From a virus (lineage: Duplodnaviria > Caudoviricetes): DNA of 64,000 bases. A model generated the notes under the pieces. That model had not been told where the DNA came from. It made no database searches and saw only the letters and a program-made list of their open reading frames with translations. Below, piece by piece: positions 4,032 through 62,674 of this stretch. Location: IMG/VR virus record IMGVR_UViG_3300035675_000001; one strand, 5' to 3'. Made by a program: the position numbers and the translations under genes. Positions within the stretch are counted from its first letter, which is position 1; each line of letters begins with the position of its first letter.

Positions 4032-4226
4032 TTAACTACCCGTCACCAAATCGGCCATGATCGCCGCTACCTTTTCATCGTCCGGGTCTTCCTTGAGGCA
4101 TTCCACGGCGATCTTTGACACCTGCGCCAAAGTGTAAATCGCATCCCGCAAGGCCGGATCGTTGCTTTTTGCCGCCACTTTGGCCACAGCGGCGGCTTGT
4201 TGCCCGAAAGTCGTTCTCTTTCCCAT
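4032..4226 (-). CDS. Small hypothetical protein
   Basis: 64-aa helical ORF (MGKRTTFG...LVTGS) filling the gap between two minus-strand genes. Confidence 0.5.
   Translation of the reverse strand: MGKRTTFGQQAAAVAKVAAKSNDPALRDAIYTLAQVSKIAVECLKEDPDDEKVAAIMADLVTGS
4033..4039 (-). promoter_or_regulatory. GTAGTTA element (putative late promoter) before the baseplate gene
   Basis: GGGTAGTTAAGGCT-ATG, 5-nt spacer. Confidence 0.6.
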
Positions 4227-4242
4227 GACGGTTAGAACCGGA

Positions 4243-4650
4243 TCAGAGCTTGAAGATGCCGTTGGGACCGGTGTCCCAATGGATGCGGACCACTTCCCCC
4301 TGCGGCGTAAAGGGGAGGTCTGTCGCCGTGTCCAGGTAGCAAACCAGCTCCGACGTGTTCTCCGTCCCGGTATCGTGGTAGATGACCAACGCCGTAACGT
4401 CCTGGCCGAACACCGGCCCGATTGTGGGATCATCCGCCCGCGCTACGCCGCCCGTGGCGGTTTTGCCGCTAAGTGGATTGCTGGTAAAGACCCGCGCTGC
4501 CAGCGGGAGGTCCGCCAGCGTGTGGTGAACGTCGATCTGGACAAAGTAGTTCCGCGTGTCAACCAGCACGACCCGAAACATATCGGTGAGCCAGTTGAGC
4601 TGGCCGGACAAGAAACGCTCGTTCGCGTAGGTGTAGCGTTGATTCGCCAT
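4243..4650 (-). CDS. Conserved phage virion/tail-associated protein
   Basis: KTATGGVARADD...VTALVIYHDTG...S.LVCYLD...LP.TPQG....WD.GPNGIFKL pattern recalled from many phage structural modules. Confidence 0.6.
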   Translation of the reverse strand: MANQRYTYANERFLSGQLNWLTDMFRVVLVDTRNYFVQIDVHHTLADLPLAARVFTSNPLSGKTATGGVARADDPTIGPVFGQDVTALVIYHDTGTENTSELVCYLDTATDLPFTPQGEVVRIHWDTGPNGIFKL

Positions 4651-4694
4651 GCCATAGATACGAAGTAGAAATTGCTTACAATTTTGAGTTCTGC

Positions 4695-6356
4695 TTGAAT
4701 GTGAATGTGACCGACGAAAAACCAGTGGCGGAAATCATGGGGCACTTTGTGCTCCAGGAGGCCCGCGCCAAACAAGTCACTGCCCTGGAATACATTGAAC
4801 GCAAGTATTATGAGGGCTTTAAGGACATTGTGATCGCCGCTCCCACGGGCATTGGCAAGTCCGCGATTGGGGCGACCGCCTGCATGTGGTCGAACAGTCT
4901 CGACGAGGATGGCGACAACGGGGGCTACTACCTGGTCACGCAGAAGATGCTCCAGGACCAGCTCCAGCGGGACATCCCCAAATACCGGATGACCGACGCC
5001 GCCCGGCAGTGCTGCTCGATCAAGTCAGCCTCCGAATACTCCTGCCCGAAGCACGGCAACTGCGCCTTCGGCATGAGCCGAAAGACCAAGTGCGCCTGCG
5101 TCGGCCAGGGCACCTGCGCCTACGTCCGCGCCCGGATGGCGTTTGGCAGGGCGAAGATGGCGGTAACCAACTACCCCTACCTGTTCACCGAGCATCAGCT
5201 CGTCAACAAACTCTTGCCCAGGAAGGTGCTGGTCCTGGACGAGTGCCACAGCCTGGAGCGCCAGATTCTCAAGTTCGTCGAAATCAACATCACCCAGGAA
5301 AGCCTCCGAAAGTGGGCCAGAACCATCAAGCAGGTGCCCCACTTTGATGACGTGGTGGAGTTCGCTAACTACTTGTTGAACACCTACTTGCCGACCATCA
5401 AGCCGCGCCTGGAAGCCTTGATCGAGTGGGAGTCAACCTCCGACTCGGAACAAGACCGCCAGTTGAACCAGGAGAAGCTGGACCTGCAAAAGCACTACGG
5501 CCAGGTCTTGTCCGGGGCCAAGCTGGTCATCAACGACCCCAAAAACTGGGTGTTCTGGCAAGAGGAAGACCGGCACGGCAACCTCGAAGCTCTCGCCAAA
5601 CCTCTTGACGCTTCTCCGTTTGGTCAAGAGTTGATCTTCGAGATGGGCCGCGTCCGCATCTTCATGTCCGCTTACCCCGGCAGCAAGAAGGTGTTCTGCG
5701 ACAGCCTGGGCCTGGACAGCAACCGCGTAGCCTGGCTGAACCTGAACAGCACCTTCCCCGTCGAGAACCGGCAGATTTTCCTGACCACGATTGGCTCGAT
5801 GAGCCGGAGGAACCGGGATGACACCATGCCCGCCTTCCTGCGGTTCACGGCGAAAATCATGGAAACCCACTACGACACCAAGGGGATCATCCACTGCAAC
5901 AGCTACGAGCTGGGCAAAGCCATCTACGATGCCTTCCGTGGCACCGAGCACGGTGCCCGGCTGCTCTTTCCCCAGTCTTCCGATGAACGCGACCCGACGT
6001 TCGCCCGGCACAAAGTGACCCCCGCGCCGACCGTCATCATCAGCCCATCCATGACCGAAGGGTTCGACTTTGCCGAAGACCTGGCCCGCTGGCAGATCAT
6101 CGCCAAGGTGCCCTACCCTTACCTGGGGGACCGCCAGGTCGCCGCCAAGAAAGACATCAACGCCGACTGGTATGACCTCCAGGCGGTCATGTCGATCATC
6201 CAGGCGTGCGGGCGCATCGTCCGGTCGGATACGGATATAGGCCAGACCTACATCCTGGACAGCGATTTTCTCCAGCTTTACGAGCGGCAGAGTCACATGT
6301 TTCCCCGGTGGTGGACGGATGCCCTGGTATGGCCTAAACGGAAGGGTAGTCGGTAA
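4695..6356 (+). CDS. dinG: DinG/YoaA-family (XPD-like) SF2 DNA helicase
   Basis: APTGIGKS Walker A, Cys-rich Fe-S region, LVLDECH, SPSMTEGFDF, IIQACGRIVRS..D.G..YILD. Confidence 0.9.
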   Translation: MNVNVTDEKPVAEIMGHFVLQEARAKQVTALEYIERKYYEGFKDIVIAAPTGIGKSAIGATACMWSNSLDEDGDNGGYYLVTQKMLQDQLQRDIPKYRMTDAARQCCSIKSASEYSCPKHGNCAFGMSRKTKCACVGQGTCAYVRARMAFGRAKMAVTNYPYLFTEHQLVNKLLPRKVLVLDECHSLERQILKFVEINITQESLRKWARTIKQVPHFDDVVEFANYLLNTYLPTIKPRLEALIEWESTSDSEQDRQLNQEKLDLQKHYGQVLSGAKLVINDPKNWVFWQEEDRHGNLEALAKPLDASPFGQELIFEMGRVRIFMSAYPGSKKVFCDSLGLDSNRVAWLNLNSTFPVENRQIFLTTIGSMSRRNRDDTMPAFLRFTAKIMETHYDTKGIIHCNSYELGKAIYDAFRGTEHGARLLFPQSSDERDPTFARHKVTPAPTVIISPSMTEGFDFAEDLARWQIIAKVPYPYLGDRQVAAKKDINADWYDLQAVMSIIQACGRIVRSDTDIGQTYILDSDFLQLYERQSHMFPRWWTDALVWPKRKGSR

Positions 6357-6398: not shown

Positions 6399-6405
6399 GT
6401 AGTTA
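6399..6405 (+). promoter_or_regulatory. GTAGTTA element before the head-like gene cluster
   Basis: Intergenic, 7 nt before TTG 6413. Confidence 0.55.
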
Positions 6406-14490: not shown

Positions 14491-14560
14491 ATCAGACCTA
14501 AATACGTTCTCTACAGTGCAGAACGGCATGATTGTCGGCTGAACGATTGAAAATGTAAAC

Positions 14561-15475: not shown

Positions 15476-15504
15476 TTGACCCGGTGGACGCTTTTGTTTA
15501 CATT
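15476..15504 (+). promoter_or_regulatory. Sigma-70-type promoter (TTGACC-N17-TACATT), probably near-leaderless
   Basis: -35 at 15476-81, 17-nt spacer, -10 at 15499-504; ATG 8 nt downstream; TGTAAACA at 15460 and TGTTTACA at 15495. Confidence 0.7.
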
Positions 15505-15512
15505 TATTCCGT

Positions 15513-18691: not shown

Positions 18692-18707
18692 TTCCGTTCT
18701 ATCCGGC

Positions 18708-19157
18708 ATGAGCGACTACATCGGGTTTTTGGTGGTAAGTAGGAAAGACGGCTACTTGCTGGAAGGCAAAGATCATGCAGCGAAGGTTTTTGAACGACGG
18801 GCAGACGCACAAAGCGCGTGCGGGGCTTTGCAGAACCGAGAGGTTGTGCGGCTTCGATACGACGTGGCCGTGCAATCGCTCATGGAGGGTTCCGCATTCA
18901 GCTTTGACTGCCAGGAGGGCCTGGAGCGGTTTCAAAAGAAGGTGCGAAACGACATGGCGCACAAGCCCTACCTCGCCAAGAGCCAGGACCACACCCTGGT
19001 CCGATGGAAAGAGTCCGATGCACGACCTGCTGAAAACGATAGCCCTGGTGCCCGTATGGTTTCTGACGCTGCTGCTCAAGCCGCTGCTGCCAGCCAGCCA
19101 TCCGTGGAAACACCAAAGTTTAACCCTGCAATCCTGGTGCCGGAACGGAACCAGTAA
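18708..19157 (+). CDS. Hypothetical protein
   Basis: 149-aa ORF with GTTCTAT 5 nt upstream. Confidence 0.5.
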   Translation: MSDYIGFLVVSRKDGYLLEGKDHAAKVFERRADAQSACGALQNREVVRLRYDVAVQSLMEGSAFSFDCQEGLERFQKKVRNDMAHKPYLAKSQDHTLVRWKESDARPAENDSPGARMVSDAAAQAAAASQPSVETPKFNPAILVPERNQ

Positions 19158-19223
19158 CGCCATCCAGTTTGGTGTGACGTTTTGGATTCTTGGCCTGTGC
19201 CAGTGTGCGCTAATCTACCTGCT

Positions 19224-19424
19224 ATGCCGAAAGTGAAAAAGAAAGCCAAGGCGCAAGCCAAGGCCGGAGACATCTGTGAGTTTTGCTCTGGCGTCCTGAT
19301 CGAAGTCCAGGGGAATCTCTGCTGCCAAAGGTGCCATCGCGTGCCCGGCCAGGTTGACCCGGAGGTCAAGGCCCCCGAAGTCATCCACCCACCCGTGGGT
19401 CCACGCCGGAGCATGAGACCATGA
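19224..19424 (+). CDS. Small Zn-ribbon protein
   Basis: CEFC...CQRC. Confidence 0.5.
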   Translation: MPKVKKKAKAQAKAGDICEFCSGVLIEVQGNLCCQRCHRVPGQVDPEVKAPEVIHPPVGPRRSMRP

Positions 19425-19846
19425 AAGCCGTTCCCATTGACCTGCTCCAGCAGATCGCTGATCGCAAGCTGGAGGTCACCGGCAAGAACATCTGGAACGC
19501 GCTCCGCTACCGCGCCCATATCCAGTTGATCGGCCACGACGGCGACGTGCTCACTGGCGTCCCTGGCACGGACAAGGTTGCCTCCATCCGGTTAACCAAG
19601 CGCGGGGAGGAAGCCCTGGCCAGCGCCGGAGCCAAGGCCATGTTCAACAAGGACGACCTTCCGATGGACGTGCGCCTGTGGGTCAGCTCCTTCCGCCGCT
19701 GGTGCCGGAACTGCCCGAAGCACGTCCACCTGGCCTACTCTGACGGCCAGCTTCACGTCCTGGGCGAAGACAGCAGCGGCCAGGTCAAGGATGATGACGG
19801 GCATCGGCTTTCGTCGATGAAAGTGCCGTGGGTAGTTAAGGCGTGA
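19421..19846 (+). CDS. Hypothetical protein
   Basis: 141-aa ORF with coupled start and stop. Confidence 0.5.
   Translation: MKAVPIDLLQQIADRKLEVTGKNIWNALRYRAHIQLIGHDGDVLTGVPGTDKVASIRLTKRGEEALASAGAKAMFNKDDLPMDVRLWVSSFRRWCRNCPKHVHLAYSDGQLHVLGEDSSGQVKDDDGHRLSSMKVPWVVKA
19832..19838 (+). promoter_or_regulatory. GTAGTTA element
   Basis: GGGTAGTTAAGGC-GTG, 4-nt spacer. Confidence 0.6.
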
Positions 19847-20415
19847 ACGACGCCGTTCAGGACATCATAGACTTTCTCTTGGAAGACGATCCGGTTCGCC
19901 GCGAGCGAGCCGCCTACGTCGCCCGGCTGCGGAAGCGCCACGTCCCTTTCTCCAAGATCGGCAAGACGATGCACGTCAGCCGCCAGCGTGCCCACCAACT
20001 CTACCGGTCCTTTGCCGAAACCGAAGAAGACTTCGAGGCGAAGGACTTGGCCAGCCCCTCCAGCCCGGAGGAAGCCCAGCAGAAGATCGCGGAGTGGATG
20101 AACGCCCACCAGATGCGCGGGGAGTTCAAGCTTTGGCCCAAGGGCACCTATCGCGGTCCCTACCCGGAATACGCCCAAAACGCCGAGTTCTCCATGACCC
20201 TGAGCGGCCTCCTGGCCGACGAATGGGAGGAGAACTTCCGCATCCAGGACGAGTTCGATCTGGTCTGCAAAAGCCTGGGCTACCACTACGAGCACGGCAC
20301 CCGCAGCTCCCTCCACTTCTATCTCAACCCGCCGATGGAAGCCAGCGAACTAGGGGAACCTCCGCCTGAGCGCGAACCGCTGCCGCCGCCCAATCTCCGA
20401 GACATCGAATTTTAG
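19843..20415 (+). CDS. Tagged protein with sigma-70 region 4-like HTH
   Basis: IIDFLLEDD; VPFSKIGKTMHVSRQRAHQL; tag FAETEEDFEAKDL. Confidence 0.55.
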   Translation: MNDAVQDIIDFLLEDDPVRRERAAYVARLRKRHVPFSKIGKTMHVSRQRAHQLYRSFAETEEDFEAKDLASPSSPEEAQQKIAEWMNAHQMRGEFKLWPKGTYRGPYPEYAQNAEFSMTLSGLLADEWEENFRIQDEFDLVCKSLGYHYEHGTRSSLHFYLNPPMEASELGEPPPEREPLPPPNLRDIEF

Positions 20416-20483
20416 TTCTACCTGGTGCGAATTGGGGGCCTTCACTGATGGTCCTTGAATTTGTTTACAAAATTTAGCACCGT

Positions 20484-20804
20484 GTGGAATCAATGAATCG
20501 GCGCGGCTTTTTCAAAATCCTGGCGTCCGGTCTGGTCATAGCGACCGGCCCGACAATCTTCATTCCGAAGATCATCAAACCCGTCTGGAAGCCACTGGTG
20601 GTGCCCCGCGCCAGCATCGGCAACTTCGACCGCTGGATTTTTCCGATCATCGCCAACATGTCCGAGACGGACGTGATCGACCAGCTCGTTAAGGTTCAGC
20701 CAATGAGCCTGCCAACCGGCGCTACCTTCTACATGGACTTCAAGTATGGCCCGCCGCGACGGCGACCTTTCCTGGAACGGCTATTCCCCTGGCTTCCCGC
20801 ATGA
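20484..20804 (+). CDS. Small protein: twin-arginine-like signal fused to a T4 gp23-like capsid fragment
   Basis: MNRRGFFKILASG...; FPII....VIDQLVKVQPMSLPTGATFYMDFKYG. Confidence 0.55.
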   Translation: MESMNRRGFFKILASGLVIATGPTIFIPKIIKPVWKPLVVPRASIGNFDRWIFPIIANMSETDVIDQLVKVQPMSLPTGATFYMDFKYGPPRRRPFLERLFPWLPA

Positions 20805-21430
20805 TCCCGAAAATCATTCATCAGATTTGGTTTAACGTCCACGAGCTGCCGCCGCGCTACGTGGCCTACCAGGAGACTTGGAAAAAGCACCACCCCGGCT
20901 GGGAATACCGATTGTGGACGAAAGACAATCTGCCGGGCATGGCCAACCGGCACATCTTCGATCATTTGAACAACTATGGAGCCAGGGCCGACGTGCTGCG
21001 CTACGAACTGATCTACCAGTTTGGCGGCTGGTATTGCGACATGGACACCCAGTGCTTCCGCGCCATCGACCCCGTGCTCGAAGGCAAGCGAGTCGCGCTC
21101 TGCTACGAAAGCCCGCCGCCCCGCACGGACATGATCTGCAACTGCTACCTGGGAGCCGAACCGCGCCATCCGCTGTTCGAGGCTCTGCTGCGCGAGCTAC
21201 CTGACAGCGCCTTCAAGCAGGACTGGCCCGTAGTTGGAGCAACCGGACCTGGTTTCCTCACTCGTGTCGCCAAACAGGTCGGCGTCGAACCGGACTTGCC
21301 TTACTACCAGTTCGTGCCGTTCCTGTGGAACGAGCGAGAAAAAGCCAGCAATCTGCCGCCCGGCATCTACGCCGCGCACTACTGGGACATGGGCTGGCGC
21401 GACAAAGACTCAAACCCAACCGTCTCATGA
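20801..21430 (+). CDS. Glycosyltransferase family 32 (OCH1-like, DxD)
   Basis: IPKIIHQIW, ADVLRYELIYQFGGWYCDMD, ATGPGFLT, YAAHYW. Confidence 0.9.
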   Translation: MIPKIIHQIWFNVHELPPRYVAYQETWKKHHPGWEYRLWTKDNLPGMANRHIFDHLNNYGARADVLRYELIYQFGGWYCDMDTQCFRAIDPVLEGKRVALCYESPPPRTDMICNCYLGAEPRHPLFEALLRELPDSAFKQDWPVVGATGPGFLTRVAKQVGVEPDLPYYQFVPFLWNEREKASNLPPGIYAAHYWDMGWRDKDSNPTVS

Positions 21431-21717
21431 AAGAGCAAACCAGCCGAGGCACCACCAACCGTTTGATCTGCGCGGTCGCCTACTGGTTTTGGGAAAGCCA
21501 CGCGGCATGGCCGCACCGCATCATCCGGGTGTATGGGTTCAGCGAATACCAGACCAACCACGGCAGCCACGTTTGGGTGGAGCACTACAAGTTCTGGCAC
21601 ACGCTCTGGCGGGCCACAGGCATGATCTTCCCAGCCTGCAAAAAGGTGTGGGACAAAATCGAGCAGAAGGTCTGGCTTAGGAATGTGGACAAAGATGAGT
21701 TCCGAGGCGGTATGTGA
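21427..21717 (+). CDS. Hypothetical protein
   Basis: ATGA-coupled 96-aa ORF. Confidence 0.4.
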   Translation: MKEQTSRGTTNRLICAVAYWFWESHAAWPHRIIRVYGFSEYQTNHGSHVWVEHYKFWHTLWRATGMIFPACKKVWDKIEQKVWLRNVDKDEFRGGM

Positions 21718-21922
21718 TCTGAAAGAGCTGGCGCTCGACATGACCTGGCTGACCTGCGAACGATGCGAGGTCGTGGCCCCGGATGTCACTGTGCGTCCCT
21801 GCATGACCGCCTACGCTGACCCGAAAGAGAACGTCAGGCCGGTCCTCTGCGACCAGTGCGCGGGGGAGTATTTTGACTACTGGGATTCGCTCTGGAAAGA
21901 ATACAACTCGTCACGCGGATGA
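21683..21922 (+). CDS. Small Zn-binding protein
   Basis: CERC...LCDQC. Confidence 0.5.
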   Translation: MWTKMSSEAVCDLKELALDMTWLTCERCEVVAPDVTVRPCMTAYADPKENVRPVLCDQCAGEYFDYWDSLWKEYNSSRG

Positions 21923-22101
21923 AACCGTTAACGCTCAAAGAACCAGCCAAGTGCTGCGGGTCGCCAACCTTGCTCTGGATACCGGCCAAGGGCTTCTACA
22001 TGTGCCCCTGCGGCGAAACCAGGGCAGACCTCGACGGCCAGCTCATTGGCAAACGTAAACCTTTCGGATACGGTCGCAGAAAGAATGAACGACGGCCTTG
22101 A
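21919..22101 (+). CDS. Small Cys-rich protein
   Basis: KCCG...YMCPCG. Confidence 0.45.
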   Translation: MKPLTLKEPAKCCGSPTLLWIPAKGFYMCPCGETRADLDGQLIGKRKPFGYGRRKNERRP

Positions 22102-22321
22102 ACTGATGTCGGACGCCGACATGCCGGACGACCCGCCGATCCCCGGTGGTCACTCGCGGGCCTGGATAGAGCAGATGCTTGGCCTCACCCGCGCCCCGGA
22201 GCACATCGTCCTGGACTTCACCATTACCCCGGAAGGGGCGCAGATGGCCGAAGACGTTCAACGGCTTGCGGATACTGTGCGCCAGGGGGTCGGCATCCCG
22301 CGTGAGTTCTTCGGCCCGTAG
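22046..22321 (+). CDS. Hypothetical protein
   Basis: Acidic ORF of about 80-90 aa; start uncertain. Confidence 0.4.
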   Translation: MANVNLSDTVAERMNDGLELMSDADMPDDPPIPGGHSRAWIEQMLGLTRAPEHIVLDFTITPEGAQMAEDVQRLADTVRQGVGIPREFFGP

Positions 22322-22324
22322 TTA
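22318..22324 (+). promoter_or_regulatory. GTAGTTA element before the lipoprotein gene
   Basis: Abuts ATG 22325; second ATG at 22334. Confidence 0.5.
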
Positions 22325-22804
22325 ATGGCGGTCATGAAAAACTTCGTCGTTGTTCTCGTCGTCGCTGCACTGGCCGGATGTTCAACTCCGCCCGTGTCAA
22401 AACCCGCTACCACCACGGCGGTTGTGATGCCGCCATTGCCGCCCATGCCGCCCCTGCCTTCGGCAGCGCCAAAAGCTCGCATTGCCAGGATGGCCCTGGC
22501 AGCAGCGGGCGCACCGGCTGCCGCCCCACAGTCGTTTACATTTTCGGCCACGGACCCCTGTGCTCCCCGTGCCTGGGTGCAAGGGACCAACGTCCACCTG
22601 GAGTGGCCCTGCTTTACCAATGCGTGTTTCAGGATCGACAGCAGCACGAACCTGTTCACCTGGGAAACTATCGGGACCAGCATCAACTACGACACAGAGC
22701 CAGTGACGAATACCATTGTCGTCATTGACTTCACCGCTGGTCTCCGCTCGTGTCGATACTACCGCGTCGTGCCTGTGGACACCAACGGCGTCCGGTTACC
22801 CTGA
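22325..22804 (+). CDS. Lipoprotein with Pro/Ala linker and a Verrucomicrobia-type C-terminal 'STNL..W...YYRV' domain
   Basis: Lipobox LAGC; FRIDSSTNLFTWETI...CRYYRVV. Confidence 0.7.
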   Translation: MAVMKNFVVVLVVAALAGCSTPPVSKPATTTAVVMPPLPPMPPLPSAAPKARIARMALAAAGAPAAAPQSFTFSATDPCAPRAWVQGTNVHLEWPCFTNACFRIDSSTNLFTWETIGTSINYDTEPVTNTIVVIDFTAGLRSCRYYRVVPVDTNGVRLP

Positions 22805-23565
22805 TGTTGTCCACAGCCACAAAGAAGATGAAGAAAATCCTGGTCATGGGACTCTCCGGGAGCGGCAAAAGCACGCTCACCGGCGAGCTGGCTCCGCTCC
22901 TGGGAGCAGTCGTGTTCAACAACGATGAGGTCCGCAAAAACATCAATCGAGACCTTGGGTTCACGATGACCGACCGCATCACGCAGGCCGAGCGCATGGG
23001 CTGGCTCTGCGAACAGGTGGTCAAGGCCGGTCACTTCGCCATTGCCGATTTCATCTGCCCGACCGAGCAAACGCGGATCGCGTTCGGCCCATGCTTCACC
23101 ATTTTCATGGATACCGTGAAGCACAGCCGCTTCCCGGACACCGACAAAATCTTCGAGCGGCCACAGCAGCCCGACCTGGTGATCGACAACTTCCGGCAGC
23201 CACGGCTGCTCGCGCTCCAGATCAGGGACCGACTGGTAGGCACCACAGCCAAGAGCATGTTCATCGGTCGCTACCAGCCACTCCACGAAGGCCACATCAA
23301 GCTGATCCAAAAGGTGCTCGACGAAGGCCGCGAAGTTGTAGTTGCCCTGCGCGATACCACGCTCAACGAATCGAACCCATATACGCTGGCGGAGCGCCGG
23401 GAGATGTTCAGAAAAGCTTTCGGCAGCCGGGTGCAGGTCGTCTCGATTCCAGACATCACTGAGGTATGTTACGGTAGAGGCGTCGGCTGGGGCGTGCGCG
23501 AGATACGCCTGGATGCTGAGACCGAGGCCATCAGCGCCACAGCCATCCGATCCGCCTGTAGTTAG
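22804..23565 (+). CDS. Adenylylsulfate kinase-like domain fused to a HxGH nucleotidyltransferase
   Basis: MGLSGSGKST, NDEVRK..N.DLGFT..DR, DFICP; FIGRYQPLHEGH. Confidence 0.8.
   Translation: MLSTATKKMKKILVMGLSGSGKSTLTGELAPLLGAVVFNNDEVRKNINRDLGFTMTDRITQAERMGWLCEQVVKAGHFAIADFICPTEQTRIAFGPCFTIFMDTVKHSRFPDTDKIFERPQQPDLVIDNFRQPRLLALQIRDRLVGTTAKSMFIGRYQPLHEGHIKLIQKVLDEGREVVVALRDTTLNESNPYTLAERREMFRKAFGSRVQVVSIPDITEVCYGRGVGWGVREIRLDAETEAISATAIRSACS
23558..23564 (+). promoter_or_regulatory. GTAGTTA element
   Basis: 7 nt before GTG 23572. Confidence 0.5.
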
Positions 23566-23571
23566 CTTGGC

Positions 23572-23934
23572 GTGAATGAAATATCGACCATGCAGACACG
23601 CATCAAGACCCAAGTTGCCCGATGCGAAAGAAGACAACACGCGGCCAACGTGATGGTCTTGCTGTCTGTCGTTTTCGGATCAATCGCGCTACTCCTGGTG
23701 TTCCAGGACGAGCTTGTCTATCCACTTCTGATTGGAGGCTGGATCGTCCACTTAGTGGCCGCAGCCTACTGCCATAAGCTGTGGGTAGGCAGGAAGTTGT
23801 GCTGGATGGCCCTGGGCAAATGGTGCGCCATAATGGACGACATTACGGCTTCCATAGCCGGTCCAGGATCGCTTTTACCAGCACCGGAAGACAGATTAGC
23901 AGAAATGCGGCAACCACTGCCCATTTTGAGCTGA
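23572..23934 (+). CDS. Two-TM membrane protein
   Basis: Two hydrophobic helices; GTAGTTA upstream. Confidence 0.5.
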   Translation: MNEISTMQTRIKTQVARCERRQHAANVMVLLSVVFGSIALLLVFQDELVYPLLIGGWIVHLVAAAYCHKLWVGRKLCWMALGKWCAIMDDITASIAGPGSLLPAPEDRLAEMRQPLPILS

Positions 23935-24190
23935 CCATTGATTTCCAGTCCTGTAACTCTTGGACGCGCAGATCGGTCTCGATGGCGCTACGGTTGCCCT
24001 CAAGGACGGCCTTGATAAGCCATTCATTCTGAGCCTCCATCCGAGAAAGAGTCTCAACGAGATACTTCTCCTGCTCCGACAACTTGTTCACCAAGTGCGG
24101 AGGGATCGCGGACTTGAACTCAGGCTTTTCGAGTTCCTGGTATCTCGGAATGCGTTGATCGGCCATTCTGCGCTTAACTACGTGCGCCAT
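23843..24190 (-). CDS. Coiled-coil protein with C-terminal membrane anchor
   Basis: Heptad-like core followed by WAVVAAFLLICLPVLV. Confidence 0.55.
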   Translation of the reverse strand: MAHVVKRRMADQRIPRYQELEKPEFKSAIPPHLVNKLSEQEKYLVETLSRMEAQNEWLIKAVLEGNRSAIETDLRVQELQDWKSMVSSKWAVVAAFLLICLPVLVKAILDRLWKP

Positions 24191-24237
24191 CGTCCTTAGA
24201 CGCAGGAGGCAGCCCAAAAATAAATGCACTTCCACTC

Positions 24238-24266
24238 TTGACACCGGAATCGAAATCGTTTACACT
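24238..24266 (+). promoter_or_regulatory. Sigma-70-type promoter (TTGACA-N17-TACACT)
   Basis: Perfect -35, 17-nt spacer, TAnnnT -10 preceded by GTT; heads the run of small genes at 24324-26635. Confidence 0.8.
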
Positions 24267-24323
24267 TCTTTCCAGAATGAAAGACGGCCAGGCTCGTAGC
24301 CCGGCCAAAACGAACGGAACATT

Positions 24324-24776
24324 ATGATCGAGATTGGAAAGAGCAAGACCATCAAGGTCCGCACCAAGAAGCACGGCAAGCTCGTGTTCAAGACGGACGC
24401 GGACGGAAACCCGGAGACCAAGGTCGTTTGCGCCGAAGTCGTCCGATGCACACGCGGCGAACTCGACGGCCACTACGGCAGAGACCGTGGCCGCAAGCTG
24501 GTTGTCCGGCTCAAGGCCGGTGACGTAATCGAGATTTGGCCGATGGGCACCCGGCAGCGTTACACCGCCGAGATCAAGTCGGTGTTCTCCTGGATGCTCA
24601 GGAACGCCGCCAACAAGGCGCAACTGGAGAAGGCCCGCGAGCGCAAGGTCAAGGTCGAGCAACGCCGCTCCGTCCGCCGCCAGGAAGCCCGCGACCGCCG
24701 CTTCCGCGAAGGCTGCCGGGCGCAGACCCTCAAGTCCCTCGCCGGTCAGGAAATCAAAAGCCTTGGCCAAGCCTGA
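24324..24776 (+). CDS. Hypothetical protein with basic C-terminus
   Basis: 150-aa ORF after the promoter. Confidence 0.55.
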   Translation: MIEIGKSKTIKVRTKKHGKLVFKTDADGNPETKVVCAEVVRCTRGELDGHYGRDRGRKLVVRLKAGDVIEIWPMGTRQRYTAEIKSVFSWMLRNAANKAQLEKARERKVKVEQRRSVRRQEARDRRFREGCRAQTLKSLAGQEIKSLGQA

Positions 24777-25126
24777 TGAAACTGGCACCCGCAACCTACC
24801 TGGGGATGAGCGCGTCCGAGCGCGAGCAATGGCACCGCGACCATCCCCAGGGTTTGCCTAAACCCAAAACCGGACTCCCTATGAACGCTCCCACGCCTGC
24901 CCAACTGGTCTGCATGACCACCATCCAGGAAGCTCTGAACCACGTCGTGTGGCTCGACCCACACGTCACCTACGAAGCCCTGGGCGACCGCGTATTCTGC
25001 ACCGCCCACTGCCGCACACCCCAGGAACAGAAAGAAGTCCTCCTGGCTTTTTCCGCCATCCCCAACGTCGGGATGTCGAGCACCCAAAACCCGCCAACCG
25101 TAACCGTCGTCATCCAACAGTCATGA
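24776..25126 (+). CDS. Hypothetical protein
   Basis: TGATG coupling. Confidence 0.45.
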   Translation: MKLAPATYLGMSASEREQWHRDHPQGLPKPKTGLPMNAPTPAQLVCMTTIQEALNHVVWLDPHVTYEALGDRVFCTAHCRTPQEQKEVLLAFSAIPNVGMSSTQNPPTVTVVIQQS

Positions 25127-25473
25127 AACTCAAACAAATCCGCTGCGAGATCACCCTGGAGGAAGCCAGGAAGCACGAGCAGTATCGCAAGATTCCCGAC
25201 CACATCCTCCAAAGCATCTTCCTCTACGTTCACGAAGGCCGTCACCCCGGCCACTTCCTGAGCGCCGTGCTCTGCAACGATCTGTTCGAGGCCGTGGGCC
25301 GCGCCGACAAAGAGGCCCTGGTCTCGCTGCCGGAGCTGGTCATCTTCATCCACAACCGAGTGCCGACCTGCGCCTACAAAATTCACGGCGTCCCCGGACC
25401 CAAAGCGATGAACCGCTGGGTGAAGTGGCACCGGGATCAGGTCGAAGAAATCGACACCGACCAGGAGGAATAA
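25123..25473 (+). CDS. Conserved hypothetical phage protein
   Basis: YV.EGR.PGHFLSAVL.NDLFEAVGRAD..A...L..LV.FI.N..P..A pattern recalled from phage genomes. Confidence 0.6.
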   Translation: MKLKQIRCEITLEEARKHEQYRKIPDHILQSIFLYVHEGRHPGHFLSAVLCNDLFEAVGRADKEALVSLPELVIFIHNRVPTCAYKIHGVPGPKAMNRWVKWHRDQVEEIDTDQEE

Positions 25474-25474
25474 C

Positions 25475-25774
25475 ATGGCCAAAAAAGTCCGCATCACCCT
25501 GGAGCTGGAAAACGGCTTCATCAAACTGCTCAACGCGAAGTGCCAGCTCGACGGCGCAATCCATTCCGCCATGAAGGGCGACCCGTCGCGGCAGCTCGAT
25601 CCCGCCGAAGTGCTGGCCATGCTGGTCCTGGCCGAAGCACGCGGAGGAACCGAGGAGCAGATTCACGCCATGACGCCGCACGAGTGGCGATCCGAGATCA
25701 ACCTGATTCATGAGGAGCGCCGGGTTTATGAAGGCGGCAAACAGATCGCCGGTCCAAAATTTTCAGCCTCGTAG
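25475..25774 (+). CDS. Hypothetical protein
   Basis: 99-aa ORF preceded by AGGAGG. Confidence 0.5.
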   Translation: MAKKVRITLELENGFIKLLNAKCQLDGAIHSAMKGDPSRQLDPAEVLAMLVLAEARGGTEEQIHAMTPHEWRSEINLIHEERRVYEGGKQIAGPKFSAS

Positions 25775-25830
25775 GGAATTTCGTTTACATTTTCGAGGCA
25801 ACCCCGTAAAGTGGGTGAGCAGCGTTGGCT

Positions 25831-26067
25831 ATGTCACTCACTTTATCAAAACTATCGAAGCCGGACCTGAGCGTATCTTCCGCCCCCTACCGGGTTACGC
25901 TCAAGTCCGGCAAACAATTCTTCTACAGCACCCTGCGGGAAATAGTTCATGACTTCCCGGTCAGCAGGATTGAGCAAATCTACGACCGCCACAAGCGGCG
26001 GGTCGTGGACCTGCTCAAGATCGGGCGTCGAGAAAGAAAACGTAAACATGAGCAGAAAAACGATTGA
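25831..26067 (+). CDS. Small basic hypothetical protein
   Basis: 78-aa ORF. Confidence 0.4.
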   Translation: MSLTLSKLSKPDLSVSSAPYRVTLKSGKQFFYSTLREIVHDFPVSRIEQIYDRHKRRVVDLLKIGRRERKRKHEQKND

Positions 26068-26635
26068 GCACCCCAGTTTCGGACACGTAACCATTGGCAG
26101 GCAGTCCAGCAACCGCGACCGGCTTTTCGGAGCCGCTGGCTCCAACCACAACTGCATAAGCATCGAAATCAGCGACGCGACTGTGGACGTGGATGAGGCC
26201 GAAGGCAGCTACTTCATCAACGCCAGGAAGCGCATCCTGGAGATCGCCATGACCCCGCTCCAGTTCGCCGAGGCGATTGCTTCGCTGAACTGCTCGGAAG
26301 GGTCGCCTTGCACGATCACCTGGCGGGACGGCAAGTTTCTGTCCGCGCCCGACGAACCGCCGACCACGCGCCTGGAGCACGTCGAAAAGCAGTTCCAGCA
26401 CGAGATGATCGAGCTGGGCAAAGAGTGCGACGAGTTTCTGGCCACGGCCAGGGCGCTCCGGGAGAAAGCAAATGTAAACAAAGGTGACCGGGAACAGTTC
26501 GTCAAGCTGGCCGAGGGGCTGGTCAACAAGATCACCGCCACGACCCCCTACCTCATGAAGCGGTTCACCGAGTGCGTCGAAGACCTGATGTGCGAGATCA
26601 AGGTCGATTCCAGTGCCAAGCCTCCCGGTAGTTAA
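26048..26635 (+). CDS. Hypothetical protein
   Basis: HPSFGHV.I.R...LFG...H...I.I.I.A...I.E.AMT..QFAE.I.S.N..EG.PCTI pattern recalled from phage proteins. Confidence 0.55.
   Translation: MSRKTIEHPSFGHVTIGRQSSNRDRLFGAAGSNHNCISIEISDATVDVDEAEGSYFINARKRILEIAMTPLQFAEAIASLNCSEGSPCTITWRDGKFLSAPDEPPTTRLEHVEKQFQHEMIELGKECDEFLATARALREKANVNKGDREQFVKLAEGLVNKITATTPYLMKRFTECVEDLMCEIKVDSSAKPPGS
26628..26634 (+). promoter_or_regulatory. GTAGTTA element before tail fibre 1
   Basis: GGTAGTTAAGGC-GTG, 4-nt spacer. Confidence 0.6.
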
Positions 26636-26638
26636 GGC

Positions 26639-29775: not shown

Positions 29776-29777
29776 TT

Positions 29778-30520: not shown

Positions 30521-30524
30521 TGGC

Positions 30525-36436: not shown

Positions 36437-36437
36437 T

Positions 36438-37124: not shown

Positions 37125-37125
37125 T

Positions 37126-37815: not shown

Positions 37816-37816
37816 C

Positions 37817-38545: not shown

Positions 38546-39007
38546 TCACCACAGCCCAACCGGGCAGTATTCCGTGGCCAGACCCGCCTTGGTGTAGCAG
38601 ACACACTTGCAGTATTGGCAGTAGTAGCCCTTGAACTGTCCACACTTGTTACTCTGGCAGACCTGGTAGCGTTGCGCGTGGTCCGCCTTGGACATGACCG
38701 GCATCCCCGCCGCGATCCACCGAGCCATTGACTCCTCAAAATTCTTGACGACCTGCGGCCAGGTGAGCACCGGCAGCGCATTGGGGTCCACTGGCGCACC
38801 GCAGCCCGCGCACCCGCCCGTCCCTTTTGGTTTGACGACCCTGCCGTTGTCCGGCGCGTAATCTGCCGACAGGATCGGCTCGAACTTACGCATGGGGCAC
38901 CCAGCGGAACTCTGGAGCGCGTGCCCGCGCAGACAGACGCCATCCCACTCGGAACAGACCTTGCAATGCTGCTCCAAACGAAAGTAGAAGATTTCTCTCG
39001 GAATCAT
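38546..39007 (-). CDS. Cys-rich protein (DUF6171-like C-terminus)
   Basis: CKVC, CAGC, CQSNKC...CQYCKC..K.....CP.G.W. Confidence 0.6.
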   Translation of the reverse strand: MIPREIFYFRLEQHCKVCSEWDGVCLRGHALQSSAGCPMRKFEPILSADYAPDNGRVVKPKGTGGCAGCGAPVDPNALPVLTWPQVVKNFEESMARWIAAGMPVMSKADHAQRYQVCQSNKCGQFKGYYCQYCKCVCYTKAGLATEYCPVGLW

Positions 39008-39090
39008 AAATGTTTACAAACAAATTCTTAACTTTTTCTTGGCCTTGAATCCTTTTTGTCCACCTTGGTCAAGTAGGTAGCGCAGAGATT

Positions 39091-40065: not shown

Positions 40066-40485
40066 TTACGTGGTCGGAGCTGCCGGTTTGGCAGCCGGTG
40101 GTTCCTCACCGCCGCCGAATCCCGTCAACACCAATACCTGCTTGGACGCTTCGCGCAGGCCGACGCCTGCCGCACCGCAGAGCGCACCAAGTTCCCACGA
40201 ACTGTGGGGAATGACGCCCGACTTCGCCAAGAGCCAGTCCGCACCTACACCGATAACCGCAGCCAGAAACGGCCAGGTTACCTTGGGCAAGGACGGAAGC
40301 ACCTTTTTGATGCCAAGCACCACCAGCGGCACCACCAGGACAATCAGCCCGTTCCAGATGTTGACCAGGACGGGGTTGACCGGGGTTGACGCCGCAGGCA
40401 CGGCATTGGTGACTTGGGCGAGGGCCACAAGCGTAAATGCCAGCAGGACGGCGCAGGCCACTGTGATTTGCTTTAGTGTCTTCAT
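40066..40485 (-). CDS. Multi-TM membrane protein, holin-like
   Basis: N-terminal signal/TM plus 3 short TMs (IWNGLIVLVVPLVVLGIKK..., WPFLAAVIGVGA, GALCGAAGVGLRE) and a polar tail. Confidence 0.55.
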   Translation of the reverse strand: MKTLKQITVACAVLLAFTLVALAQVTNAVPAASTPVNPVLVNIWNGLIVLVVPLVVLGIKKVLPSLPKVTWPFLAAVIGVGADWLLAKSGVIPHSSWELGALCGAAGVGLREASKQVLVLTGFGGGEEPPAAKPAAPTT

Positions 40486-40486
40486 A

Positions 40487-40530
40487 GTAGTTTACTCGTT
40501 GCCCCACACCGTGGGGCCGAGAGTAACTAC
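40487..40530 (-). promoter_or_regulatory. Long hairpin overlapping a GTAGTTA element and the translation start region
   Basis: mRNA GUAGUUACUC-UCG-GCCCCAC-GGU-GUGGGGC-AAC-GAGUAAACUAC-U-AUG. Confidence 0.7.
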
Positions 40531-40532
40531 GA

Positions 40533-41024
40533 TTACTGTGCCCCCTGTTTGATCTGGTCGATGCCCTTGAGGCCATCGCTCACACCGTCAACCAGGGCTT
40601 GAGCCAGCATCTTCCACCCGACCTGTTCCTCCAGCCCGGCCTGAACGTATTGCTGGCCAAAGGCAGCGTAGGCTGAAAGCAGAGGCGTGATAATCAACTG
40701 AGCCTCCGGGGTCTTCAACTCCTTCACAGGCAAGGCGTAAATCTTGGCCTGGAGTGCGGACGGCGACATGTTTGTGGACAGGACGAACTCCTGGAGAGCC
40801 GTCTGAACGACGCTGATCCAGGTCACGGAGTTCTTGTCCTTCGTGTAACCATAAACCACTGCGCCAGCGACAGATGTTCGCAGGATCGGGGCGAGCTTTT
40901 CAGCCGCAGCCGGATCGAGCACTTTCTTGCCGGAGGACGTGGTTGTGCAACCTGTAAACACCACCGGTGAGCCAATCGCCAGGATTGCGGTGAGTGCCAA
41001 TGCGAACAGTCTGTTCTTCTTCAT
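40533..41024 (-). CDS. Lipoprotein (possible lysis/spanin-like or surface protein)
   Basis: Signal peptide with lipobox FTGC, followed by an all-helical body. Confidence 0.65.
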   Translation of the reverse strand: MKKNRLFALALTAILAIGSPVVFTGCTTTSSGKKVLDPAAAEKLAPILRTSVAGAVVYGYTKDKNSVTWISVVQTALQEFVLSTNMSPSALQAKIYALPVKELKTPEAQLIITPLLSAYAAFGQQYVQAGLEEQVGWKMLAQALVDGVSDGLKGIDQIKQGAQ

Positions 41025-41071
41025 AGTTTTGATGTTTGTTTTCGCGGATCATCCGCCCTGTAATTACTCTG

Positions 41072-41539: not shown

Positions 41540-41551
41540 TTTGTAAACATT

Positions 41552-46747: not shown

Positions 46748-46765
46748 GCCTATAAGAACGGAGCG

Positions 46766-47371: not shown

Positions 47372-47393
47372 AGTTCGTTCTTCCTTGATAGGT

Positions 47394-49457: not shown

Positions 49458-49476
49458 AATCCGTTCTATTGGGAGT

Positions 49477-51172: not shown

Positions 51173-51179
51173 GTAGTTA
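51173..51179 (+). promoter_or_regulatory. GTAGTTA element before the gp53-like gene
   Basis: GGTAGTTATGAC-ATG, 4-nt spacer. Confidence 0.6.
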
Positions 51180-53285: not shown

Positions 53286-53435
53286 ATGACCGAAAGAGAT
53301 GAACAACTTTGGAAAGAAAGAGTAAGCAGGGAACACCCGGAACGCGGGCTGGCTATCATCATACTTGGTAGCACCCTGCTCTACGGAACGCTGACAGTAT
53401 TTTTGTTGATTAAACTTTTTAACTACTTGCTATGA
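53286..53435 (+). CDS. Small membrane protein (49 aa; below the ORF track cutoff)
   Basis: MTERDEQLWKE...GLAIIILGSTLLYGTLTVFLLIKLFNYLL; stop overlaps the next ATG. Confidence 0.5.
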   Translation: MTERDEQLWKERVSREHPERGLAIIILGSTLLYGTLTVFLLIKLFNYLL

Positions 53436-57930: not shown

Positions 57931-58352
57931 ACGGCTTTGTCACAACTCAGCGTTACGGGACCACATTTGATGTGCCCATCAGCCTGCCGCAGACTGAACT
58001 CCGGCGCGGGCGCTACATCAACTGCGGCCAAATCCGGCTGACGCTGGGCCAGGTCTTGCGGATTCGCTGCCTGAACCTGCACCTGGTCAACATCATCACG
58101 GCCACGGCGCTGCCCGACATTTTCAGCACGCCCCTGGGCATCGTGAGCGCAGGCGTCTATCTCTCGCCGATGATGTGCTCGTCGTCCTGTCTGCTGACCG
58201 CTCAGTCGCCTGGGATCATTTCTGTAAACAGTTTCGCCTACAAGGAATACCGGTCGCCTGGCCTCTATTACTTCACCGTCAGCAACAACACGACGAACGT
58301 GGACGTGAGCGTCGCCCTGACGGGGGTCATCAAGCTGCTCAACTACGCATGA
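57927..58352 (+). CDS. Beta-rich virion protein, paralog of 53432..53917
   Basis: FDVPISLPQTELR...PGLY...SNN..NVDVSVALTG. Confidence 0.55.
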   Translation: MNGFVTTQRYGTTFDVPISLPQTELRRGRYINCGQIRLTLGQVLRIRCLNLHLVNIITATALPDIFSTPLGIVSAGVYLSPMMCSSSCLLTAQSPGIISVNSFAYKEYRSPGLYYFTVSNNTTNVDVSVALTGVIKLLNYA

Positions 58353-58365
58353 AGTTCTATCCCCT

Positions 58366-61281: not shown

Positions 61282-61292
61282 AACGTAAACAA

Positions 61293-61976
61293 ATGAAAAA
61301 GCTAACATTATTGCTGGTAACAGCGTTCCTATTCGTTCAAGCCGCGATGGTTCAAGCGGCCTCCTCCGTCACCCTCGCGTGGGACGCAAGTCCTGACGTG
61401 GGCGTGACCAACTACAACCTCTACTGGGGTCTCATGTCGGGCACCAATCACGCGACGACCAACACGGTGCTCACCGGCAACGTGACAGTCTATACGCTGA
61501 CCAATGCTTTAACCCAGCCCAACACCTACTGGTTCTACGTGACCGCCCTGGGCAGCGGGCTGGAGAGCGTGCCCTCCAACGAAATCCGCTACGCCCCGCC
61601 GTATCCGTCGCCGGACCAGATGGCTGGCTTCCGCTACACGACGTTCTGGCAAGGCAGAAATCCGTGGGTGCTGCAACTGGACTGGTTCGCGGTGACCAAC
61701 ATCCCGCTGGCCAACTACCGCATCTACTGGGGCCTGATGAACACCAACAACGGCACCCATACGACCACCAACATCTTGCCGGTCTCCGCGTCGCAGACCA
61801 CCTGCACCGTGAGCAACCTTATCACCGGCAACACCTATTGGTTCAGCGGAGCCGCCGTCTCGACCGACATGGTTCAAGGACCATACTCGGATGAGATTCG
61901 CTACTTCGTTTATCCGATTGCGCCAAGAGGCCCTGGGTCTTTCCGCCAGGTCATCACTGTGCAGCCCGGACAGTAA
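61293..61976 (+). CDS. Secreted protein with two fibronectin type III domains
   Basis: Sec signal; SVTLAWDASPDVGVTNYNLYWG...Y.FYVTAL...ES.PSNE; second copy LDW...NYRIYWG...YWFSGAA. Confidence 0.8.
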   Translation: MKKLTLLLVTAFLFVQAAMVQAASSVTLAWDASPDVGVTNYNLYWGLMSGTNHATTNTVLTGNVTVYTLTNALTQPNTYWFYVTALGSGLESVPSNEIRYAPPYPSPDQMAGFRYTTFWQGRNPWVLQLDWFAVTNIPLANYRIYWGLMNTNNGTHTTTNILPVSASQTTCTVSNLITGNTYWFSGAAVSTDMVQGPYSDEIRYFVYPIAPRGPGSFRQVITVQPGQ

Positions 61977-62674
61977 TGTGCCGGGATCAAATTCCAGTCT
62001 GCATCCAGTCCTGCTCGAAGGAGTTCGCCTTCGAGCGGCGAATGGCTTGCCTGGACACTTGGGTTCCGACGTTATCGTCGAAATTCTACCCCATCTTCCT
62101 GGTCGGCAACCCCGACCAGGAAGTTGATTACATCTTCAAGGAGCTAGGCCCTGGCTGCGGCAATTACCTCAGCGTCCGCTTCTGCGACGAGTGGTATGCG
62201 CTCTCCGGCAAGATGAGGCGCTGGTGGGTGTGGGCGCTGGAGCACTTCGACGCGCCCTGGTTTTTCAAGTGCGACGACGACAGCTACGTCAACGGCAGGC
62301 TGTTCAACGATTTCCCCTTTGAGCGTTACGACTACACCGGCCATTTCTACACCGAAACTTACGCCTGGAAGCAGAAACGTCCGCTGGTTGGCAGCGAGAT
62401 TCAATACAAGGCCCACGGCGCGGGCTACAGCCTTTCCCGGCGCTGCGCCAAGCTCGTGTCCGAGAAGCTGGGCGACTGGGAGCCTGGCGGCGAAGACGTG
62501 AGCACGGCCAGGACCATCTTCAACGGCATCCCCGACGTGGTGATCCACGACATGTGGGAACCGCGAGTCGCGCCCTGGGCCAGACTGAACATGCAGCCCG
62601 ACTGGTTGGTCGGCCACGAGATTCGGGGCATGGACATGATGCGCCAGGTTCACCGGAAGGTAGTTAATCCGTGA
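61976..62674 (+). CDS. GT31/Fringe-like galactosyltransferase
   Basis: WFFKCDDDSYVN, GAGYSLSR, EDV. Confidence 0.8.
   Translation: MCRDQIPVCIQSCSKEFAFERRMACLDTWVPTLSSKFYPIFLVGNPDQEVDYIFKELGPGCGNYLSVRFCDEWYALSGKMRRWWVWALEHFDAPWFFKCDDDSYVNGRLFNDFPFERYDYTGHFYTETYAWKQKRPLVGSEIQYKAHGAGYSLSRRCAKLVSEKLGDWEPGGEDVSTARTIFNGIPDVVIHDMWEPRVAPWARLNMQPDWLVGHEIRGMDMMRQVHRKVVNP
62660..62666 (+). promoter_or_regulatory. GTAGTTA element before the terminal polyprotein
   Basis: GGTAGTTAATCC-GTG, 4-nt spacer. Confidence 0.6.

Follow-up and report, generated by a model that had tools for sequence, protein, structure and literature searches.

A start-proximal GTAGTTA box as a probable leaderless late promoter in an uncultured wetland jumbo phage

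The heptamer GTAGTTA was found a few nucleotides (nt) before the start codons of virion genes in the 64-kb stretch of IMGVR_UViG_3300035675_000001, an uncultured wetland jumbo phage, and it is read here, with a probability of about 0.6, as a single-box, phage-specific late promoter that would give leaderless or very short-leader mRNAs. The whole 64-kb stretch is called the window throughout. This explanation, put forward in a first-pass annotation of the window, was the one best supported by the sequence comparisons, namely by the lack of a -35 element, the virion genes downstream, the conservation of the box, its presence in narrow divergent gaps and the occurrence of a sigma-like protein in related phages.

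The window was found to contain 13 exact copies of GTAGTTA (8 on the plus strand and 5 on the minus strand) against 0.86 expected, the expectation being the mean of 100 dinucleotide-preserving shuffles, among which the maximum was 4 and 0/100 reached 13. Eleven of the 13 copies were sense-oriented and upstream of an open reading frame (ORF), and six stood 4-5 nt from ATG or GTG. The first-pass annotation had counted 11 copies, all with the right coordinates, but had overlooked those at 5366-5372 and 24175-24181 on the minus strand. Its other readings of the copies held: the six with a 4-5 nt spacer were those at 19832, 26628, 30514 and 62660 (before GTG) and at 51173 and 4039 minus (before ATG), AGGC directly followed the motif at 19832, 26628 and 4039 minus, the motif was written into the last codons of preceding ORFs (ending VVKA, VVNP, GS and CS before the stop), and the copy at 53420 was the exception. 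The 13 copies, followed by three variants of the box, are as follows.

4033-4039, minus strand: GTAGTTA, 5 nt to ATG 4027 of the gp6-like baseplate wedge gene 1697-4027 (minus)
5366-5372, minus strand: GTAGTTA, antisense within the helicase gene, no start codon near
6399-6405, plus strand: GTAGTTA, in the spacer between the helicase and the next gene, 16 nt to ATG 6422 (283 amino acids, aa)
19832-19838, plus strand: GTAGTTA, 4 nt to GTG 19843 (190 aa), in Val-Val codons of the upstream ORF
22318-22324, plus strand: GTAGTTA, overlapping the upstream TAG stop, abutting ATG 22325 and 9 nt to ATG 22334
23558-23564, plus strand: GTAGTTA, 7 nt to GTG 23572 (120 aa), the upstream TAG stop inside the box
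24175-24181, minus strand: GTAGTTA, 8 nt to ATG 24166 of the 107-aa ORF 23843-24166 (minus)
26628-26634, plus strand: GTAGTTA, 4 nt to GTG 26639 (723 aa, Ala/Gly-repeat, fibre-like), the upstream TAA stop inside the box
30514-30520, plus strand: GTAGTTA, in a 51-nt spacer, 4 nt to GTG 30525 (707 aa)
40524-40530, minus strand: GTAGTTA, 2 nt past the upstream stop, 38 nt to ATG 40485 (139-aa protein with multiple transmembrane segments)
51173-51179, plus strand: GTAGTTA, in a 41-nt spacer, 4 nt to ATG 51184 (gp53-like baseplate wedge subunit)
53420-53426, minus strand: GTAGTTA, in an AT-rich spacer, facing away from the next gene, no adjacent start
62660-62666, plus strand: GTAGTTA, 4 nt to GTG 62671 (ORF of >442 aa that leaves the window), in Val-Val codons of the upstream ORF
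4655-4661, minus strand: variant GTATCTA, 4 nt to ATG 4650 (PHROG_644 family, 135 aa), in a divergent pair with the helicase
14499-14505, minus strand: variant GTATTTA, 8 nt to ATG 14490 (575 aa), first gene of a divergent pair
41060-41066, plus strand: variant GTAATTA, 5 nt to ATG 41072 (155 aa), first gene of a divergent pair

The final bases of the 4033-4039 box form the TAA stop of a 64-aa ORF at 4032-4226 (minus), which is itself preceded by a GGTTCTA box. This small ORF and the one at 23843-24166 (minus), whose product carries a membrane segment at its C-terminus, had both been overlooked by a simple gene model. The antisense copy at 5366-5372 may be a chance occurrence or an antisense promoter. 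A GTTCTT box at 22306-22311 was found 7 nt upstream of the copy at 22318, and the copy at 40524 takes part in a hairpin (40483-40535, minus) in which the box region is the 5′ arm, the 3′ arm ends 1 nt before ATG 40485 and a perfect 7-bp GC stem is enclosed.

The window had a GC content of 60%, a third-position value (GC3) of ~0.8 and densely packed genes predominantly on the plus strand; it contained no tRNA or Rfam matches, and no near match to it was found among the cultured phages searched. Among its PHROG matches were the two baseplate wedge proteins (gp6-like and gp53-like), as well as a helicase, a RusA-like resolvase and a protein of 1338 aa that contains NUDIX. The phage clade is T4-related through its baseplate genes and comprises hundreds of metagenomic members, many on contigs of ~240 kb; the gp6 of the best relative found in IMG/VR and in a scan of JGI metagenomes was 83% identical to that of the window. 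Two relatives from IMG/VR, G001 (238 kb, 57% GC, syntenic with the window) and G002 (203 kb, 60% GC), were analysed together with the window using gene calls from a codon-usage model built for the purpose, and 32 additional related contigs were collected via the portal gene. All candidate starts near the 5′ end of each ORF were taken in the motif tests, so that errors in the start calls were tolerated.

The frequency of every hexamer in the 16 nt before candidate starts was compared with its genome-wide frequency, and TAGTTA was found to rank first in the window (7/14 copies start-proximal, p 1e-9), in G002 (22/37, p 3e-28), in G001 (12/40, p 1e-13) and in the 32 further contigs (41/63, p 3e-58). 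The positional enrichment that the first-pass annotation had proposed to look for was present in each of these data sets. The runner-up was the CGTTCT/GTTCTA/GTTCTT family, and no Shine-Dalgarno (SD) word appeared in the ranking. A matrix anchored on 42 start-proximal sites contained G before TAGTTA in 36/42, and none of its positions between -20 and -2 exceeded 0.19 bit; with no information upstream of that G at -1, a -35 element is lacking. The box was followed by a loose R-G-R-C in a purine/GC-rich segment. Its general form was G-T-A-n-n-T-A, with GTATTTA, GTAATTA and GTATCTA as the commonest variants, and boxes of this kind are called class 1 below. The spacer from box to start was 4 nt at 20 of the 42 sites, which is the mode, and 5-8 nt at 19. 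The start codons at the 4-nt spacer were 13 GTG, 7 ATG and 0 TTG, whereas those at 5-8 nt were nearly all ATG (Fisher p 1e-4), TTG being nearly absent. The restriction to ATG or GTG (RTG) at the shortest spacer agrees with the requirement shown for leaderless mRNAs in mycobacteria (PMC4633059).

Class-1 boxes were found before 21% of the first genes at divergent junctions, before 22% of the genes that follow gaps of 6-40 nt and before 5% of translationally coupled genes, whereas reversed control words reached 0-1%. These figures bear on the view that the heptamer is a by-product of gene ends, serving as a stop cassette where translation is coupled or arising by chance from the composition of AT-rich spacers. 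The motif does carry stop codons in two frames (TAG, and TAA or TAG with the next base), the upstream ORF ends inside it at 4/11 window sites, and the A or G that follows it at 34/42 sites makes a second stop. Such an origin is nevertheless disfavoured and was rated as having hardly any chance, since the motif is rarest just where genes are coupled, its reversed controls are not enriched, it also occurs in spacers that have no same-strand upstream ORF, for example at divergent junctions, and at 19832 and 62660 the upstream ORF continues through it with Val-Val codons.

The box was conserved at orthologous loci. In 25 distinct portal upstream sequences, from portals 57-100% identical to the G002 query, the exact heptamer was found in 22, at spacers of 4-12 nt, and the neighbouring columns showed just 40-75% identity. 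A tandem of GTTCT, 0-8 nt and GTAGTTA was present at 15/22 portal loci (L026-L059) and likewise at 22306-22324 in the window. The loci of the PHROG_644 gene (ATG 4650 minus in the window; 37-74% identity) contained GTA[G/A/T]TTA in 12/16 cases and a looser GTAnnTA in 3 more, mostly exactly 4 nt before GTG or ATG, with an invariant G-T-A-n-n-T-A core. Before gp6 the six nearer lineages kept a box at 4-5 nt from the start, with spacers unrelated in sequence, and in more distant relatives stop/start coupling took the place of the box. The fibre-gene orthologs found were too few for a footprint.

The spacers of the window and of G001 were found to differ at four genes. In G001 the ortholog of the 19843 gene has GTAGTTA 6 nt from ATG, or 3 nt from an in-frame TTG, that of the 22325 gene has GTAGTTA 8 nt from ATG, and those of the 26639 and 51184 genes have GTAATTA and GTATTTA, respectively, each 4 nt from ATG. 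The ortholog of the 41072 gene has GTATTTA 8 nt from ATG. Some distant boxes were conserved as well. The box before the 6422 gene lies at 14-16 nt in four lineages, three relatives having the exact heptamer at that distance and a fourth having it at 7 nt, amid flanks that have diverged; the gene of the 139-aa membrane protein has its box at 38 nt in the window and at 15 nt in G001 (GTAGCTA, without the hairpin described above); and the G001 portal has one at 38 nt. Distances of 14-16 and 38 nt are too great for a ribosome-binding role, which favours action on DNA.

The rarity of SD sequences that the first-pass annotation had remarked on was evident in the pairing energies. Over the three genomes the 20 nt upstream of starts paired with the anti-SD tail at a mean of -4.0 kcal/mol, as against -4.9 kcal/mol for intragenic 20-nt windows (p 1e-7), and pairing weaker than the intragenic level suggests that SD-like sequences are avoided and not simply left unused. 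The absence of SD sequences might lead one to expect another signal for start selection, and GUAGUUA on the RNA could be one, an SD-independent initiation element that recruits ribosomes directly or via a phage protein while the promoters lie elsewhere. ATG or GTG indeed follows the motif within 2-16 nt nearly always, the spacers of 4-12 nt resemble SD spacing, and the tandem GTTCT-GTAGTTA places the motif in a leader. The host in that case would be one that does not use SD pairing. Complementarity to host 16S rRNA, which the first-pass annotation had named as the observation that would speak for a ribosome-binding signal, was not found: GUAGUUA formed a duplex of +0.1 kcal/mol with the conserved 16S tail (67th percentile of heptamers; consensus SD -12), a tail that may differ from that of the host. 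The purine run after the box is also too closely spaced to the start to pair in its stead. Searches of the relatives for phage-encoded ribosomal protein S21 and IF3 gave no match, though divergent versions could escape them, and the sites conserved at 14-16 and 38 nt do not suit ribosome recruitment. An initiation element of this kind was considered a rather poor prospect.

The arrangement of the boxes at divergent genes also favours a role on DNA. Divergent gene pairs with gaps of 14-50 nt were found to contain a box beside each start. The 14-nt divergent gap at 58146-58159 of G002 holds GTTCTTA for the plus-strand gene and GTAGTTA for the minus-strand gene, and at the junction of the helicase and PHROG_644 genes two boxes stand back to back and were kept across the clade. 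If the boxes were RNA signals, both promoters of such a pair would have to sit inside the opposite gene, and the first genes would be left without a recognisable promoter, as no other words were enriched at -70 to -17 except the reverse complements of the same boxes. A strong terminator directly in front of one box also speaks against an RNA element. In G001 (212830-212884; L024) a terminator-like hairpin of -23.8 kcal/mol with a T-run was found 9 nt ahead of a GTAGTTA box, which in turn stands 4 nt from the GTG of a 414-aa gene. A second terminator was seen in G001 at 183613-183697 (L023), with GTATTTA downstream of it at a distance of 63 nt from the tRNA that opens an array.

The same arrangements bear on the idea that the heptamer is an endoribonuclease processing site, with cleavage a few bases downstream yielding mRNAs that begin at the start codon. 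MazF-type cleavage has been reported to yield mRNAs of that form. Processing would account for the tight link to start codons, for the RTG-only starts at the 4-nt spacer and for motifs inside upstream ORFs. The divergent first genes with 14-50 nt gaps would still need a promoter, however, the box right after the terminator would be unexplained, and no candidate nuclease was identified; moreover, a fixed heptamer whose G-T-A..T-A core does not vary and which lacks structural context is more typical of DNA recognition by a sigma factor. Cleavage at the motif was accordingly judged improbable.

The genes behind the two kinds of box were found to differ. All class-1 genes with a functional PHROG label were virion-related, apart from one giant NUDIX-containing protein; the labels were baseplate wedge (two), baseplate hub/lysozyme, tail fibre (three), portal and head-tail adaptor. 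The downstream functions named in the first-pass annotation were borne out by PHROG for the gp6-like and gp53-like wedge proteins and weakly for a tail fibre, but its head-like assignment was not confirmed; its holin-like gene encodes the 139-aa multi-membrane-segment protein. The CGTTCT-class genes encoded helicase, primase, replication-initiator-like, glycosyltransferase, HldE-like and RNR-like proteins, with one weak baseplate-hub match. The split between virion and replication genes was significant (Fisher p 0.003), as would be expected of temporal promoter classes, with CGTTCT[TA] as a candidate middle class. A second box with the same geometry and another functional class suits temporal promoters better than two kinds of ribosome-binding site. 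The CGTTCT[TA] boxes of the window, each 5-11 nt before ATG or GTG, are as follows.

1687-1693, minus strand: CGTTCT[TA] box
4233-4239, minus strand: CGTTCT[TA] box
46754-46760, minus strand: CGTTCT[TA] box
18695-18701, plus strand: CGTTCT[TA] box
47376-47382, plus strand: CGTTCT[TA] box
49462-49468, plus strand: CGTTCT[TA] box
58353-58359, plus strand: CGTTCT[TA] box

A motif common to a functional regulon of virion genes, in a position that overlaps the translation initiation region, might instead be the operator of a phage regulator, which could act on DNA to repress or activate late genes or could repress translation in the manner of RegA. RegA sites in T4 overlap the translation initiation region. 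The box, however, is asymmetric and strictly sense with respect to its gene, it occurs as single copies with no dyad or repeats, and the late genes would again be left without a promoter signal. An operator in place of a promoter was thus thought very improbable.

Promoters of classical form were found to be built in the same way. The ATG followed the -10 hexamer of TTGACN-N16-18-TANNNT promoters at 5-10 nt in 15/37 cases in the window, G001 and G002, against a background of 8% (p 5e-8). As these promoters adjoin the ATG with a spread of spacers like that of GTAGTTA, a box next to the start codon is how undoubted promoters are constructed in these genomes. Two examples from the window are as follows.

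15476-15512: TTGACN-N17-TAC(A/C)(T/C)T promoter, with ATG 15513 at 8 nt after the -10 hexamer
24238-24276: TTGACN-N17-TAC(A/C)(T/C)T promoter, with an ATG at 10 nt that opens merely a 16-codon ORF before gene 24324

A third dispersed element, GTAAAC, was seen to abut start codons at 0-3 nt (14555-14560, 26042-26047, 41543-41548 and 61285-61290 on the plus strand and 39012-39017 on the minus strand). Its reverse complement is GTTTAC, and it frequently lies within TTTGTTTACAAA-like palindromes. The element stands too near the ATG to serve that start as a -10 box. In G001 it was found 5-7 nt before three tRNA genes (192298, 193598 and 212102).

A protein of ~340 aa, encoded at 228406-229434 in G001, was found to be conserved in G001, G002 and a further genome, G003, with 296 metagenomic homologs, many of them on contigs of 240-250 kb. 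All of the top-50 Foldseek matches of its AlphaFold 2 (AF2) model (pLDDT 77) were sigma chains, at weak E-values. Residues 14-125 of the model were superposed on the Pribnow-box domain of SigC with a Z of 10.1 and a root-mean-square deviation (rmsd) of 2.3 A over 88/89 residues, and the N-terminal domain on SigA with an rmsd of 2.3 A over 98 residues; the overall range for sigma region 2 was an rmsd of 2.3-3.3 A over 85-98 residues at Z 9-10, a value that is no proof for helical folds. The predicted structure suggests a sigma-like protein with a region-2 fold. The first-pass annotation had called for a phage sigma factor or a homolog of gp55, the protein that reads the T4 late box. A predicted sigma-like fold was found, but no gp55 homolog was detected by sequence, and gp55 itself was not among the structural matches. 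G001 and G002 had no match to Pfam Sigma70_r2, and the matches to Sigma70_r4, all below threshold, lay elsewhere. The gp45 clamp family DNA_PPF (PF02916) was not found in G001 and G002, and the Pfam families of multisubunit RNA polymerases gave no match in three near-complete relatives, although divergent clamps and polymerases could escape these searches. The model for T7-type RNA polymerase matched 0 control genomes as well, so that its blank in the relatives is uninformative. With no phage RNA polymerase detected, the economical model is that sigma-like factors of the phage redirect the polymerase of the host. The sigma-like gene was also seen on L091, in a copy with 84% identity over the portion on that contig (JBEKZM010000197.1, 5.9 kb), which was binned into a Verrucomicrobiota metagenome-assembled genome from peat and gives a weak hint that the host belongs to that phylum.

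On the promoter reading, host RNA polymerase carrying the phage sigma-like factor would recognise a lone -10-region box with no -35 element, and transcription would start ~5 nt downstream of the box, presumably late in infection. The mRNA would begin at the ATG or GTG of the virion gene, or up to ~12 nt before it, and would be translated without an SD sequence, followed by translation of the downstream cistrons mainly through stop/start coupling. A loose C-purine step at 4-5 nt after the box and a pyrimidine at -1 of 78-84% of motif-linked starts are compatible with initiation 5 nt after the box. The term leaderless, as used in the first-pass annotation, can apply at best to the class with 4-5 nt spacers, but orthologous spacers range over 4-16 and even 38 nt, and many transcripts would therefore carry short leaders that lack an SD sequence.

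Several points weigh against this reading. The motif is nearly always tied to a start codon (26/28 copies in G002), whereas a promoter needs that link only if leaderless translation is obligatory, and the spacer range of 4-12 nt also resembles the distribution of ribosome-binding sites. The 4-nt mode demands initiation 5 nt after the box, one base closer than in T4 and about two closer than with sigma70. Transcripts from the first box of the tandem GTTCT-GTAGTTA would carry GUAGUUA in their leader, which makes an RNA-level role conceivable. A search for class-1 boxes immediately in front of tRNA and tmRNA genes gave none. The start positions carry some error, as they come from a home-made gene caller. 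Searches of the ~340-aa protein by sequence (Pfam, PHROG, PDB and tblastn against phages) gave no match, and the protein is only a candidate for the reader of GTAGTTA. Three metatranscriptome runs from the same study gave only spurious matches of 18-30 nt to window positions 19001-39000. Taken over all its forms, a role of GUAGUUA at the RNA level was rated unlikely. One such form, a new SD-independent RNA signal that would select late messages through binding of a phage factor or cleavage by a phage nuclease, possibly on top of a promoter role, was considered a fairly long shot.

If the promoter reading is true, a transcription map would become readable for a whole clade of uncultured jumbo phages, in which late (virion) genes would be recognised by GTAnnTA, those for replication by CGTTCT[TA] and the early ones by TTGACN-N17-TANNNT. 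Signals that abut start codons would aid the annotation of starts and the assignment of unknown genes to time classes, the practical gain lying in annotation and in promoter parts. The host would have to translate leaderless or short-leader mRNAs.

Other features were observed in the same genomes. G001 was found to contain a tmRNA gene at 203211-203641 (L024:3211-3641) and at least 23 tRNA genes at 183697-212177, most of them with a short (A/T)TTTTA-like word in front. The window contained four tandem paralogous genes at 35759-38545, of ~225-242 aa, all of which begin with ATGGC; T-rich TTnTA-like words were found 5-7 nt upstream of them, and they had no family match.

A literature search for GTAGTTA together with promoter and phage returned primer sequences only and no description of the box. 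Among known systems, the late promoters of T4 consist of TATAAATA at -13 to -6, which gp55 recognises together with gp33 and the gp45 clamp (PMC2988020). The likeness lies in a lone box, short and AT-rich, that occupies the -10 region without any -35 element, present in dozens of copies per genome, before virion genes, on either strand and often within the preceding gene. The box described here is GTAnnTA, however, and TATAAATA was found 0 times in the window, 0 times in G002 and once in G001, so that by sequence the box is no member of the T4 late-promoter family. It lies 4-8 nt from the start codon, whereas the T4 box lies upstream of a leader with an SD sequence; the segment after it is purine/GC-rich, whereas that of T4 is AT-rich; and its candidate factor is the ~340-aa protein with a predicted sigma-2-like fold, gp55 and gp45 being undetected by sequence. 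T4 geometry combined with a 4-nt spacer would make the second base of the start codon +1, and strict leaderlessness therefore needs initiation 5 nt after the box. The analogy with T4 drawn in the first-pass annotation extends to function alone. If the promoter reading is true, this would be a T4-related phage in which the TATAAATA/gp55 system has been replaced by another box and another sigma-like protein.

The jumbo phages of the phiKZ/AR9 type also have very short motifs near the start site, but their late promoters are read by phage multisubunit RNA polymerases (PMC7598289, PMC5312081), whereas genes for RNA polymerase subunits were undetected in the three near-complete relatives of the window phage. 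The AR9 transcripts have leaders of 26-491 nt (PMC5312081). The leaderless genes of mycobacteria, whose mRNAs must begin with RTG, resemble the present ones in having ATG or GTG only at the predicted 5′ end, with GTG common and no SD sequence (PMC4633059). They belong to a cellular system with a host sigma factor, however, and nothing ties the phage to Actinobacteria.

The middle and late transcripts of the Thermus phage phiYS40 are leaderless according to a summary of Sevostyanova et al. 2007 (PMC3594737), and in Deinococcus-Thermus a -10 motif adjacent to ORFs, TAnnnT, is read in Deinococcus by the host primary sigma factor (PMC12340547). These systems have in common with the present one a -10-like element that stands alone within a few bp of the start, with no -35 element and no SD sequence, and leaderless mRNA as the main mode for later phage genes, which in the present phage is a prediction. 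In contrast to Deinococcus-Thermus, TAnnnT is confined here to the presumed early class with a -35 element, the late box TAGTTA ends in A and lies ~2 nt closer to the start, and the candidate for reading it is a sigma-like protein of the phage. The conceptual gain would be moderate, since lone -10 boxes with leaderless late mRNAs are already known from phiYS40. The GTAGTTA box would represent a known strategy, that of a lone -10 element and leaderless late mRNA, with a new sequence, a new spacing and probably a phage factor of its own.

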